Positions 39,041-55,060 of a stretch of DNA of 64,000 bases are shown here, in pieces. The stretch comes from Eledone cirrhosa. Lineage: Eukaryota. Both the position numbers and the translations under genes were made by a program. Under the pieces are notes generated by a model. That model had not been told where the DNA came from. It worked only from the letters and a program-made list of their open reading frames with translations, and ran no database searches. The stretch covers positions 44,888,001 through 44,952,000 of the forward strand of contig OZ024746.1 in assembly GCA_964016885.1 (NCBI GenBank). Reading direction: 5' to 3'. Position 1 is the stretch's first letter. The number at the start of each line of letters is the position of its first letter.

Positions 39041-39962
39041 TATTCATTTTCTTAAGGTTCAACAGTGAGTCTTGTGACTCTGTAATTTCGCCTGCTTATC
39101 ACGGGGTCATCAGAGAAGAACACACAAACACACACACATATATATACAAACGCAGTAACACTCCATTTATGTATGTGTGTGTGTTCTTCACCATTTATGT
39201 GTGGATGTGTGTCTCAGTACTTGCATTTAGATTTATTCAATACGAAAGAAGATTATATTCTATATTTTCATCTTATTACTGAGAGTATATTTTATTACTA
39301 TTTGATATTCGTGCTTGACGCTGATCACGCAAATATATATATGAGCAGAATCACATCCTAGGACAATGTGGAAAAAGAAGCAATGTATAGAATACCGAGA
39401 CATTCGGCAAAAGGCCTGTAAAGAATGAAAAAAAAACATCTGTGCACATTTCTTCGGCATTCTTTCCATCAAATATTTAAGAATATACACATCGACACGT
39501 AGAGTGACTTTCGTGAATAGACAAATGCAGCTCTTTCACAAAAGTTGCCACGGACAGCGATTTGGAGAGTAAAAGTTGAGGCACAGATGGAAGGTTTCAC
39601 AATACATACTTATGTAGCCCCCTAGATACACCAACACACACACACACACATTTATATATATATATATATATATATATATATATATATATATATATAAACG
39701 GAAACATTGAAACGAAATTTCATTTCCCACTCCTAGCACGGTTGTTACTTAAATATAAGTACGTACACGTACATAAATATATGTATACAGACGTACAGTA
39801 GTATGTATATATATATATACATATATGCACACATATATATATGTACGTATGGATTCACCGAACATTTATTTTAATGCTCGGTGTGTTTGTAAACAAACAT
39901 CCCGTATTAAGCCGCAGTGTCCAGCTACCTACGTTGCTCGCCTGTTCAACACTGACAAACAA

Positions 39963-40005
39963 ACGCCGTACTAGTTTCAAGCTTACTAGCTATAGTCAGC
40001 AACGC
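39963..40005 (-). ncRNA. Hammerhead ribozyme copy with core substitution (CTGACTA)
   Basis: Reverse-complement copy of 40457-40499. Confidence 0.65.
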
Positions 40006-40456
40006 ACAGCTTCCTGCCAGATTGTTGAACGTATATACCCACCTTAAGCATATTAACGGCTGAGTAGCCCAATTTGCATATCGAGTGGGTCAATCGTCAG
40101 GCGAGCAACGATGGTTGCTGGACACTGCGGCTTAATACGGGATGTTTGTTTACAAACACACCGAGCATTATAATAAATGTTCGGGTAATCCATACGTACA
40201 TATATATATGTGTGCATGTATGTATATATATATACATACTACTGTACGTCTGTATACATATATGTATGTACGTGTACATACTTATATTTAAGTAACAGCC
40301 GTGCTAGGAGTGGGAAAGGAAATTTCGTTTCATTTTCTCCGTTTATCGTTTTCGGTGCACCCGGCCGATTGACCCACTCGATATGCAAATTGGGCTACTC
40401 AGCCGTTAATATGCATAAGGTAAGTATATACTTTCAACAATCTGGCAGGAAGGTGT

Positions 40457-40499
40457 GCGTTGCTGACGATAGCTGGTAAGCTTGAAACTAGTACAGCGT
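40457..40499 (+). ncRNA. Minimal type I hammerhead ribozyme
   Basis: GCGTTG-CTGACGA-T-AGC(tggtaa)GCT-T-GAAA-CTAG-TA-CAGCGT. Stem I GCGTTG/CAGCGT pairs with G-U wobbles, and stem III ACTAGT is palindromic. Confidence 0.8.
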
Positions 40500-40756
40500 T
40501 CTTTTGTCAGTGTTGAACAGGCGAGTAACGATGGTTGCTGGACACTGCGGCTTAATACGGGATGTTTGTTTACAAACACACCGAGCATTATAATAAATGT
40601 TCGGTGAATCCATACGTACATATATATATGTGTGCATGTATGTATATATATATACATACTACTGTACGTCTGTATACATATATGTATGTACGCGTACATA
40701 CCTATATATATATATATATATATATATATATATATATATATCTATATATATATATA

Positions 40757-40946
40757 TAGGAAAATGTTTGGCCCGGCGGCAGAGCTCAAGCCGTTTCGAC
40801 GTCTATTTCTGGTCAGAAATAGTCATGGAAATTGCTTGAGCTCTGCCGTTGGGGTTAAACATTTTCCTATTACCCACTCTACTAACCTAAGTATTGAGTA
40901 CTCTGATGCGTTATGGTCCATCAGGTTCCTTACCACACCTCCTTCG
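40757..40946. mobile_element. Short non-autonomous element with a ~113-bp terminal hairpin, in (TA)n
   Basis: TAGGAAAATGTTT..AAACATTTTCCTA fold-back (40757-40869) plus a ~75-bp tail. Second copy at 60174-60362. Confidence 0.75.
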
Positions 40947-41230
40947 TTATATATATATAAATATATATGACAAGATTCGGGGTCCTGAATCTTTTTATAT
41001 TACCCACTCTATTACCCCAAGTATCGAGCACTCTGGTGGGTTAAGGTGAAGGTGATTTTTACCATACCCTATCTGTTATATATATATATATATATATATA
41101 TATGGACGGATGATGGCTGAGAGAAAAGAGTACTTAATGCCGAAGTAGAGATTTAATATTAATTAAAGGCGAATATCCAGTGTATGAGTATGTATATGTA
41201 TGAACATGTATATGTATATATATATATATA

Positions 41231-51337: not shown

Positions 51338-51341
51338 GGGG

Positions 51342-52912
51342 GTGATACAGCAAATTAAGAACTTGGATTGTGTATCTAACCTGAGCTTGTGGAAGGGAAC
51401 TGGAGAGGTTGTTGAGTGGTTTAGGCAAATTAAATATAACAATAATAATAGGTTTATTCAACTTGATATAGCTAACTATTATTCTTCTATTACCCCTAGT
51501 CTACTAAATAAGGCACTAAATTACGCATTCAAACATACGGACCTAACTAGCAAAGAAATGCATATTATATTATCGGCTAGGAAAACTTTGATAGAATTTA
51601 ATGACAAATTATGGACCAGAGCAGATATAGATAGCAATTTTGACATAACTATGGGATCTTCCGACTCAGCTCAGGTAACTGACCTTGTGGGCTTATTTTT
51701 AATCAATTCGCTACATAGGAAAATACCTGGTACTACCGGAGGTTTATATAGGGATGACATGCTTTTACTTATTAATAATAATAACCCTGAACTAAATAGA
51801 AAATGTAAACAAATTACAAAATTTTAAAATTACTTTAACCTTAAAATAGAAATTGAGAACAACCATAGAATAGTCAATTTCCTAGATATAACATTAAATC
51901 TCAACACATGTCTCCACTATCCTTTTCACAAGTTGAATGAAAACTTAAACTATGTCAACTTTAACTCTAACCACCCCAGATCTGTCAAAAACACTATAGT
52001 AAACTCAGTCCAAAAACGTATCTCTAGGATCTCGTCGAATAGAAAGATTTTTGACGAAAAGGCCCAGTACTATAATGATGCACTAGCTAGGGCAGGGTAT
52101 GCTGATAAGATTGTGTACATAGATAATGATAGACAAACTAAACAAAGTAACAACTTTTTAATTACGGCAACAGCATTAACAACTATAATAGAAAGCATTA
52201 CAATAATTCCAAAGGACAAAAAAGAAATAGAACTAGGAACATAATTTGGTTTGCCCCCCCCCCCCCTTTCTCACTAAACATTAAAACCCACATCGCTAAA
52301 TTATTTTTCAAAGCTCTTGATATTCGCTTCCCTAGAACACATAGGTATCACTCAATCTTCAATAGGCATACAATTAAATTAACCTACTCATCCACCAAAA
52401 ATTTAGCACAAAATATTAATAGAATAAATAATAGGAACTTAAAACCTACTGATAATAGCATAAATAATATACAAGTTAACAAATGTAACTGTAGAGATAG
52501 ATCTAAATGTCCGTTAAATAACAACTGCTTAGTTAAAAATATAGTATACAATTGTAATGTTAATACTGACTCTAATTCTTTTAACTACGTCGGTTCCACA
52601 TCGACGGAATTTAAACTTCGCTATAATAACCACAAGAATTCTTTCACAGATCCAAATAAAAAATCTTCAACGGCACTATCAGGCGTACTCTGGCAACTTA
52701 AGCTAGATAACGTTAGATATTCGACGGCTTGGAATATAGTCTCAAGAGGGATTCCTTTTAATTCATCCTCTGAGACATGTGACCTCTGCGCATAGGAGAT
52801 ATTCTTTATACTAAATTCTAAAAATTCCCTTAACCTACGGACAAATTTATTCAGTTGTTGCAAACATAGATTAAACTCAACGTTTAAATATAAATTTAAA
52901 TTTAAAATGTAG
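51342..52912 (+). pseudogene. Inverted duplicate of the Naiad-like ORF, with homopolymer frameshifts (~51825, ~52157, ~52260) and the same TAG (52793-52795)
   Basis: Reverse complement of 49794-51337. Confidence 0.88.
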
Positions 52913-53277
52913 TATATTTAGTTTGATTATATTTATATGAGAACTAGCCGATAAATTTTTTGATTCCTAAATCTTTAATCCCTCTTTTTACTCTTTTTTT
53001 ATTGTTTATTTTATTTTTTTATTTTTATTTTTATCTAAACATTCCTCATGAAAAATTAAGCTACCCTAAAAGCCGATGCTCCAAATTTTTTGAATTAACC
53101 TTACACTAGATAAACTTCTATATTAAATATAGGAACATATGTAGACATAATTGGACATCATAATCCTTTTGAGATGTTCTTTGCTAGATGTGATTTGATA
53201 GATAATTTTTGGCTTTGTCTTGTAATGAACTTGGCAATATATTGTCAATTAACTTTGAAGGTTTGTTCTTTGTGGTT

Positions 53278-53449
53278 TATTTTTATTTTTATTTTTATTT
53301 TTATTTTTATTTTTATTTTTATTTTTATTTTTATTTTTATTTTTATTTTTATTTTTATTTTTATTTTTATTTTTATTTTTATTTTTATTTTTATTTTTAT
53401 TTTTATTTTTATTTTTATTTTTATTTTTATTTTTATTTTTATTTTTATT
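53278..53449. repeat. (TTTTTA)n in the Naiad-like 3' region (mirror (TAAAAA)n at ~49285-49428)
   Basis: Directly visible. Lengths differ between the arms. Confidence 0.95.
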
Positions 53450-54515
53450 CTTTTAGTATTGTAGTATACTATAATATTTTTTATTTTTATTTTTATTTTA
53501 TTTTTTATTTTTAATATTTTTAATATCTTTAATATGTAAATTTTTAATACGTAATATTTTTTAATACGTAGTATTTTTAATATGCAATATTTTTATTATG
53601 TAATATTCTTTCCTAATATATTTTTTTAGTTTTCTATTCTATATTTTTACTTATTATTATCATTATTGTTATCTTTTTATTTTTAGTTTTGTTTATAATA
53701 TAATATATATTTTTGATTGGTATATTGAAATCTGCTCTCTATTTCTGCTTGATAGATAATCTTGTAGAGTAATCGCAAGAATAATAATACGCTCAAATTT
53801 TTATACCACATTGAGAATGTTTTCCGGTAACTTAGAGTTTACAGAGTGAATCAGTTGGATTCACATTGATGTTTGTAGCTGTCACATAAACATATGAATT
53901 TTTTAAAACTAAACATAAGATAATGAATTTTCACACATTGTGGATACTTGTTTCATTCAGGAATACTGATATTTACAATATAGTGTAAGTTTTATAAATA
54001 CTAATACATTAAAACATAGGGTTTTCTACGCCTCGAATATGTCTGGCTATTTTTAAATTTTTTTTCTCTCTATATCTATCTATATCTCTCTATATATCTC
54101 CTTTACATTAATACCTGAGCTAAATAAATAAATAAATAAATAAATAAATTAATAAATGTATCATTGATACACTTACTCAAAATGACCTCCCACTACCTAA
54201 TTTTCTATATATATATATGTATCTATCTCTATTTCCTCTCTCTATATATATATATATCTCTTTCTGTTTCTTTACATGAAGCTCTTCGCTTTATCTATTT
54301 TTCCATCTCTCTATTTTGTTCCATGCATTCCTTCTTTTTCTTCCTTTTCTTCGTTTTGTCTTTCTTTCTTTCTTTCTTTTTTCTCCCTTTTTTCTCCCTT
54401 TTTTTTCTCTCTTCCTTTCTCTCTGTATTTTCACTGCTAGCGTAAACCTCTTCAAATGAAGTCGATGTTTATTACGGTATGTCGAATATATTTATCTATA
54501 AAACTGTTTATATTG

Positions 54516-54581
54516 TATTTTGTCTGATGAAGGCATAGCATATTGTTAATATGATATCCCCGAAATATATATAATGAAATA
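54516..54581 (+). ncRNA. Type I hammerhead ribozyme in pLTR (right arm)
   Basis: TATTTTGT-CTGATGA-A-[GGCATAGCATATT gtt AATATGATATCCC]-C-GAAA-TATATA-TA-ATGAAATA. Stem I pairs with two G-U wobbles, stem II has two mismatches, and stem III is palindromic. Confidence 0.75.
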
Positions 54582-55060
54582 AATATGGTTTTATAAATAT
54601 AGTTTTCCATTTATTTAATATTGTATATATATATATATATATTTATTAAAATAACAGATTAAAGTTTAAGCAAAGAATCGCTGCTTTCACCCTTAAATTT
54701 ATATATATATATATATATATATATATGTGTTATTTTAATAAATATATATATATATATATATATACTCATCTTTATATATATATATATATGTGTTATTTTA
54801 ATAAATAGTTGCTCTATGGTTCTTATATATTTGATATATATTTATCCTAATCGAACCCTCTATGGATTTTAGTCTTCGCATTTATTTTATTATTACTATT
54901 ATATATATACTCAATTAATATTTTTTCGGGAATTCTCAACAATATATGAATTTGCACTGCTCTAGCATTAATTTGTAGACAATCCTTATGAAATCTTGCA
55001 TTACAATGCATTGAAATGAAGTATTTTGAGAAATATATATAAATGTATATATGTATGTAT

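Follow-up and report, generated by a model that had tools for sequence, protein, structure and literature searches.

In a 64,000-nucleotide (nt) stretch of the Eledone cirrhosa genome (contig OZ024746.1, positions 44,888,001 to 44,952,000; hereafter the window), three insertions of Penelope-like elements (PLEs), which we call units A, B and C, each consist of two inverted, 5'-truncated copies joined head to head, with a 3' tail on one of the two arms. This anatomy is already published for PLEs, and A, B and C are further cases of it. In A and B, however, each arm contains sequence that the other lacks, so plain fold-back of a single complementary DNA (cDNA) cannot have made both arms; this point had been raised in a sequence-only reading of the same DNA, and it holds for these two units. 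We think it fairly probable that the arms of A, B and C were each copied from element RNA, with one priming per nicked target strand, at two start sites, and that the two cDNAs were then joined.

All three units lie between 39697 and 54625, where comparison of the window with itself shows four inverted pairs (A to D), each flanked by (TA)n. The inversion does not extend beyond the units: the best local score between flanks is 9-10, against a mean of 8.5-9.5 for shuffled flanks. The parts of A and B are as follows.

42424..45423, minus strand: left arm of A, a 5'-truncated Neptune-type PLE without tail, terminating in (TA)n at 42298-42423
44838-45423, minus strand: extra 5' sequence of the A left arm, 586 nt missing from the right arm
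45424..47843, plus strand: right arm of A, with a frame of 418 amino acids (aa) and the 3' region
47731..47768, plus strand: hammerhead of A, minimal type I with a U3-A8 core; mirror copy at 42495-42532 on the minus strand
47844..47903, plus strand: tail of A, 60 nt, on the right arm only, followed by (TA)54
48013..48099, minus strand: tail of B, 87 nt, on the left arm only
48100..51337, minus strand: left arm of B, a 5'-truncated PLE classed as Hydra clade, whose frame runs open as far as a premature stop (49911-49913) common to both arms
51338..51339, no strand: junction of B, two extra G, which were added without a template or arose by expansion of a G run next to a 2-nt CA overlap
51340..54625, plus strand: right arm of B, without tail, with a stop (51826) and a 1-nt deletion (52154) of its own
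51340-51363, plus strand: extra 5' sequence of the B right arm, 24 nt
54516..54581, plus strand: hammerhead of B; mirror copy at 48144-48209 on the minus strand

The geometry of A is exactly as the sequence-only reading had described it. For B that reading was right about the layout, with the right arm longer at its 5' end and the tail on the left, and wrong about the clade, which it gave as Naiad-like.

Hammerhead ribozyme motifs give the orientation of the arms. We searched the window for minimal type I hammerheads with a custom scan, which returned six motifs, against none in any of 10 block-shuffled windows. The six all lie within units: A and B have one on each arm, C has one on its right arm and D one on its left arm. 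Every one is directed outwards, away from the centre of its unit, and the arms are therefore head to head. The earlier description of four (TA)n palindromes, all head to head, thus stands as to the four inverted pairs and their orientation, but D, which has (TA)9 at its centre, is unproven. A search of Rfam returned no hammerhead family up to E = 1, only hairpin and microsatellite look-alikes with scores below the gathering threshold. Folded as single strands, four of the motifs are no more stable than shuffled sequences (z from -0.7 to +0.9), as expected for minimal motifs, and we do not count folding as support. The hammerheads of A to D are minimal type I motifs whose cleavage is a prediction.

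The left arm of A has an open 614-aa frame (43582-45423) with reverse transcriptase (RT) and GIY-YIG domains, which is 76% identical to its homologue P0121 and 75% and 66% identical to named proteins of Octopus bimaculoides. The frame starts immediately past the DKG motif of its homologues, which have ADKG directly upstream of the point where the truncated A begins. In Pfam, GIY-YIG scored over its cut-off and RVT_1 scored 29.3 bits, slightly below its cut-off of 29.6. The endonuclease (EN) is C-terminal, with a C-GRSN-C-GT-C linker (CX2-5CxxC) and a CCHH motif (C-KG-C...H...H), and on these motifs we assign A to the Neptune clade. The two arms are 99.9% alike, with 2 substitutions in 2411 aligned nt and five changes of repeat length, and A is accordingly very young. 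Their overlap at the junction, judged from homologues, is at most about 3 nt. By eye, there is also a possible intron in the terminal region of A (47762-47860, plus strand), with a GT donor at the hammerhead and a pyrimidine tract with AG acceptor that spans the short end and falls in the tail.

We class B in the Hydra clade from its predicted protein. Its EN is C-terminal, following the RT, with a CxCX5C linker (CNCRDRSKC), no CCHH motif, and CDLC beside a conserved E; the unit has a hammerhead and TA flanks. Naiad identity is ruled out by the C-terminal EN, the absence of CCHH and the presence of the hammerhead. B has no Pfam hit; it has 588 homologues (one of them from Argonauta) and the motifs YRDD and VY..YVG, and its profile matches the family of A with a probability of 98.6%. 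It is truncated before the N-terminal RWK/DKT region, its homologues having RW and ADKT.

The arms of B differ by 17 substitutions in 3218 nt (0.5%) and are separated by a 26-nt spacer. Protein-profile scoring of the spacer gave -15.4 bits for the plus strand and -13.3 bits for the minus strand, both in the random range (with a one-codon gap, the plus strand scores +7.3 before the cost of the gap). To orient it we compared 49760-51420 with four public sequencing runs, leaving aside runs X8 and X9 (shares 0.28 and 0.23). Contigs from runs X4 (two contigs) and X1 (one contig) have loose ends at 51340; they match the plus strand of the spacer from 51340 and continue upstream of it, where a hand translation reads GKLSKNILD against the homologue majority GKISKQILD. 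Because of this continuation, we conclude that the right arm is longer by 24 natural nt and that the two G lie at the joint. The B family is diverse in X4: 255 contigs are at least 99% alike, 293 are 95-99%, 449 are 90-95% and 94 are below 90% (836 of 1091 being below 99%). Among 40 listed variable places (202 more lie outside this list), 39 have the window's letter on both arms of B; these include the premature stop and 10 positions at which a different letter is near-fixed in the runs. The two arms of B come from one template lineage, and probably from one RNA, though conversion between the arms may have equalised them later.

A second head-to-head joint of the B family appears in run X13, where three raw reads with two different starts link 49991 with 51337, on opposite strands. 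This joint lies within 2 nt of the start of the B left arm, and there are two readings of it: another insertion that stopped at that 5' point, or an allele of this palindrome with a central deletion.

Unit C is smaller and non-coding.

39697..40096, minus strand: left arm of C, with the tail at about 39697-39761 and a G-to-T change in the hammerhead core at 39994
40098..40702, plus strand: right arm of C, 1.4 copies of a 420-base-pair (bp) non-coding unit, with a hammerhead at 40457-40499 and a tail-less outer end

The right arm of C begins about 265 nt further 5' than the left arm, which has the tail. Judged by its non-coding tandem unit with a type I hammerhead, of which a single copy is complete, C is a retrozyme-like non-autonomous PLE. 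The C tail is certainly element sequence, because it is repeated inside the right arm (40283-40346). For A, the place of the tail between two TA tracts suggests that it too belongs to the element, and for B the place of the tail between the arm and (TA)54 suggests the same. Comparison of tail and 3'-end sequences with the N-termini of homologues gave no convincing match (best E = 0.07).

The junctions of A, B and C contain no TA or target sequence, and have 0-3 nt of overlap or filler. Their short ends run into TA over just 2-5 nt, in 3' regions where 6-10% of positions close a run of at least four letters alternating between T and A, and 19-35% a run of at least two.

The sequence-only reading had proposed a general rule, by which the tail-less arm is the one that extends further 5'. 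All three testable units of the window follow it, which is within chance (two-sided P = 0.25; four of four, with D, would give P = 0.125). The rule had been extended to the 420-bp repeat, which is C and does comply, and to a mini element, D, whose 'tail' may be plain flank; we left D out of the count because (TA)9 lies between its arms and its supposed tail has no second copy. Outside the window we sampled 96 loci that encode relatives of A or B, 33 of which have an inverted match of at least 50 nt. We inspected 13 frame-associated pairs and 22 small palindromes (seven with a hammerhead core), and later two more units. Five outside units were resolved. All lie on contigs of host type from a single assembly record (CBDDTI01), and one family supplies three of them, so they do not represent five independent lineages:

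L090, 3566-5915: against the rule; a 758-nt tail-less arm, whose sequence recurs unchanged within a tail-bearing arm that is longer by 771 nt
L095, 7246-9170: against the rule; a 26-nt tail-less arm and a long tail-bearing arm, with about 95 nt of unexplained filler between
L091, 9642-9917: marginally against the rule; the tail-bearing arm is 5 nt longer
L091, 10326-10735: for the rule; the tail-less arm is about 60-70 nt longer (natural sequence, from L089)
L095, 10633-10735: for the rule; a tail-only arm is paired with one made up of the 51 nt that precede the short end

The rule thus holds in two of five resolved outside units and in five of eight when these are pooled with the window (P = 0.73). 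Adding three tentative cases, namely D, L094 and L047 13545-13750 (the latter two, identified by 8-nt duplications only, would obey the rule), gives 8 of 11 (P = 0.23). Excluded before the count were L034 and L031, in which the centre or tail cannot be oriented; L080, L081, L018, L040, L045 and L053, with an arm at or near a contig end; and L056, L063, L082, L092, L093 and the large L091 pair, which are complex or chimeric. Tail and 5' length are not coupled as a general rule, and PMC8557442 places the tail 'at either end'. A tail on exactly one arm is seen in all eight resolved units (three in the window and five outside), a count that is biased, as a visible tail was needed for a unit to be resolved.

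Two features of the outside units bear on how the arms were primed. Within one family, copies that arose independently share an end point, either the short site or the long one (L091 9642-9917; L095 7246, 9170 and 10633-10735), and their short ends fall on the same base (L091 9917, L095 7246 and 10633). Since independent copies end at the same base, we read the short end as a second fixed RT start site; the earlier proposal, that the short arm was primed at an internal TA-rich spot, relied on a merging with TA of only 2-5 nt, which is common by chance. L090 lies in an (ATAC)n target with an 11-nt target duplication (the chance being 0.0035 for 9 nt), and its tail resembles the tail in L095. 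Because it has the same kind of anatomy in this target, a self-complementary (TA)n break is not required. The earlier idea of two RNA-templated primings at such a break therefore survives in part: two syntheses are the simplest explanation, but (TA)n is dispensable.

Elsewhere in L095 (3653-4827) is a PLE-like copy in which an upstream part, inverted, and a downstream part meet at adjacent element positions (4474/4476 of L096), inside the reading frame; this is the geometry of classical, non-overlapping twin priming. Loci L081-L096 and proteins P0150, P0181, P0186 and P0188 are animal-type PLEs in records titled as bacterial or symbiont, most likely binned host DNA. Viral contigs contained no PLE relatives.

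In the mechanism that we favour, each nicked target strand would prime one cDNA on the element RNA. One cDNA would begin at the far start site and keep the tail, the other would begin at the near start site and skip it, and the two would be joined at their 5' stop points, by end-joining or by a micro-homology jump, as the 0-3 nt of overlap or filler suggests. The 5' stop point of each copy would vary independently, so that either arm could be the longer one. The anatomy, the orientation, the one-sided tails, the shared private variants of B and the failure of the rule elsewhere are direct observations. Cleavage and extension of both strands, and two start sites bracketing the tail, come from work in vitro on another PLE (PMC11167929), whose protein cuts and extends both strands, is predicted to form a dimer, and uses two internal start sites that equal the tail ends. 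In our reading, both primings would belong to one integration event. Tentatively, and with somewhat more doubt than belief, we extend this to PLEs at large: a PLE dimer may copy one RNA twice per integration, from both nicked strands at two fixed start sites, in which case every one-tailed head-to-head insertion would be a fossil of near-terminal twin priming, with A, B and others of their kind, in which each arm has sequence of its own, as its genomic proof.

Several points count against copying of the arms by two primings. No experiment shows two primings within one insertion. In three of the outside units (L090, L095 7246-9170 and L091 9642-9917) the tail is on the longer arm and the short arm is contained within it, an arrangement that fold-back fits equally well. 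The tail of A has no second copy in the window, and the tail of B has no confirming second copy. B, the only unit compared with the runs, has a junction that is spanned by no listed contig or read piece. The runs may come from another species or strain, so that the 'private' letters shared by the B arms could mark a subfamily and not one RNA. Lastly, divergence between the arms of C (19 of 333 nt, 5.7%) exceeds that between its two tandem copies, and a hand count gave seven private substitutions in the left arm against two and three in the right-arm copies; this excess (P = 0.07, or 0.035 counting an indel) argues weakly against one RNA for C, and is a weak hint that the left arm had a different template.

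One alternative is a single priming, after which the cDNA, or an antisense template, primes itself or folds back and the tail is added late by a template jump. Fold-back was proposed from palindromes at inverted junctions, in the accessible part of PMC3846280, and besides the three units just named it would suit D and another small palindrome, E (below), which turn at or inside a natural hairpin. We nevertheless consider it unlikely, as A and B, whose longer arm lacks the tail, would need an additional jump to an antisense or DNA template, and the arms of L095 10633-10735, which do not overlap at all, could not arise by fold-back but could arise by two primings. Later damage might instead account for part of the asymmetry, the tail being lost by slippage between an internal TA spot and (TA)n, and the centre by deletion of the hairpin tip. 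All three short ends do merge into TA, over 2-5 nt, arms differ in the lengths of microsatellites and homopolymers, and the X13 joint is within 2 nt of the border between B arm and spacer, as a central-deletion allele would be. Yet outside copies that are independent of each other share one short end point, the start sites in vitro coincide with genomic tail ends, A is so young that there has been little time, and TA matches of this length are common, all of which make damage a quite improbable source.

Two separate insertions placed back to back in one (TA)n tract would be most plausible for C and D, given the (TA)9 between the arms of D, the divergence of the C arms beyond that of its tandem copies, and the preference of these elements for (TA)n (stated in the part of PMC8557442 available). 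Against this, the junctions of A, B and C lack TA and target sequence, the arms of A are 99.9% alike and those of B share private variants in a diverse family, and we regard double insertion as very improbable. An artefact of assembly or of fold-back reads has least to recommend it and is, in our view, extremely improbable: the A arms differ almost solely in repeat lengths and no junction-spanning read was found for the window (B alone being compared with runs), but the inversions end precisely at element ends with unrelated flanks, the two arms are not identical in B (0.5% divergence) or in C (5.7%), each arm has natural sequence of its own, and like anatomy occurs in other assemblies and in published PLEs. 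Two primings, one per nicked strand, remain the reading that we prefer for A, B and C.

The other small palindromes of the window are D and E.

41231..41376, minus strand: left arm of D, with a degenerate hammerhead at 41270-41316 (core CCGAAGA)
41377..41394, no strand: centre of D, (TA)9 separating the arms
41396..41464, plus strand: right arm of D, 69 nt, beginning within hammerhead stem II
41465..41608, plus strand: putative tail or flank of D, with no second copy in the window
40760..40956, plus strand: E1, a hairpin of about 110 nt and a one-sided extension of about 80 nt in (TA)n; second copy at 60176-60363

The match of the D right arm finishes in a short TATATA at 41464, and the (TA)9 at its centre weakens the case for D as a single head-to-head joint. 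The two E units, which the sequence-only reading overlooked, have symmetric centres; that they are PLEs we only infer. The E hairpin is near-perfect, and a related extension is found at 40977-41076. Both copies have the same centre, which may be hammerhead stem II (the GAAAC half alone is visible). At one position G is common to the left arms and A to the right arms, so the palindrome may spread as a unit. The roughly 590 nt between D and A (41710-42297) contain no frame matching A or B. At least five insertions are crowded into the TA-rich region from 39.6 to 54.6 kilobases, and A and B share a single (TA)54 tract (47905-48012), with both tails facing it.

Other parts of the window contain unrelated features. 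From about 10400 to 35000 there are several multi-kilobase units in tandem, in which long plus-strand frames reach 1204 aa; by their motifs they look like L1/Tx1-type retrotransposons. A dispersed repeat of about 190 nt has five copies (405-598, 3417-3512, 4919-5064, 56085-56280 and 60449-60629) and, by resemblance, is presumably a short interspersed element derived from a transfer RNA. At 55043-55351 (plus strand) a 102-aa frame encodes C2H2 zinc fingers (Pfam zf-C2H2_4), and is either a gene exon or the 3' end of a long interspersed element.

How PLEs make inverted and tandem insertions is called an open question in the accessible part of PMC8557442, which describes a neighbouring 5'-truncated copy in inverted orientation, (TA)n targeting and a tail 'at either end', and leaves the origin of these structures unresolved. 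The useful part of our results is that reciprocal units (A and B) and a non-overlapping one (L095 10633-10735) need two RNA-templated syntheses. This argument ties the published result of two start sites to the inverted arm, and can be tested in the existing in vitro system. The rule of 5' length and tail, had it generalised, would have put the two polymerases in a definite order. Multi-kilobase palindromes of this kind can also be mistaken for assembly errors.

The closest known structures are the insertion units of EN-containing PLEs, for which the portions available of PMC3846280, PMC8557442 (Fig. 2 legend) and PMC8969392 describe the same head-to-head 5'-truncated copy, one-sided tail, hammerhead in the terminal repeat and (TA)n targets, and also a partial tandem, as in C. 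The tails here are 60-87 nt compared with 30-40 nt, and A and B have arms of unusual length (2.4 and 3.2 kilobases), but these are differences of degree. The domain order, linker motifs and hammerheads of A (Neptune) and B (Hydra) are as given in the available part of PMC8557442, B having in addition a premature stop. Minimal hammerheads of PLEs, including the U3-A8 core variant and opposite-strand pairs 100-700 bp apart, are reported in the accessible part of PMC4209133. Animal retrozymes are argued to be non-autonomous PLEs in the accessible part of a recent preprint (bioRxiv 10.64898/2026.07.22.740005), which has a class with a tandem hammerhead unit; C has the same 420-bp tandem hammerhead unit, but with one complete hammerhead only. 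In the literature that we covered, which does not extend to Evgen'ev & Arkhipova 2005 or Arkhipova 2006 (either may show the tail-bearing arm), we found no 5'-length rule and no explicit two-primer model for the inverted arms of PLEs.

Poseidon of Anolis carolinensis (PMC11167929) resembles our units in having two 3' ends downstream of the hammerhead, a tail apart, an AT-rich target, and cleavage and extension of both strands. It belongs to another clade, and the main text of that paper neither models the inverted arm nor assigns the tail to one of the arms; the activity of our units is a prediction. As products, A, B and C are not of the L1 twin-priming type, because their arms overlap by 2411, 3218 and 333 nt, although the mechanism may still be similar. 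In L1 twin priming, as described in the accessible part of bioRxiv 10.1101/2024.08.27.596794, both nicks likewise prime on the RNA and the cDNAs are joined by micro-complementarity, giving an inverted arm, and L095 10633-10735 shares its non-overlapping geometry. The second primer of L1, however, anneals far inside the RNA, so that its arms barely overlap, whereas the second start in the units described here appears to be fixed, 60-87 nt from the first.

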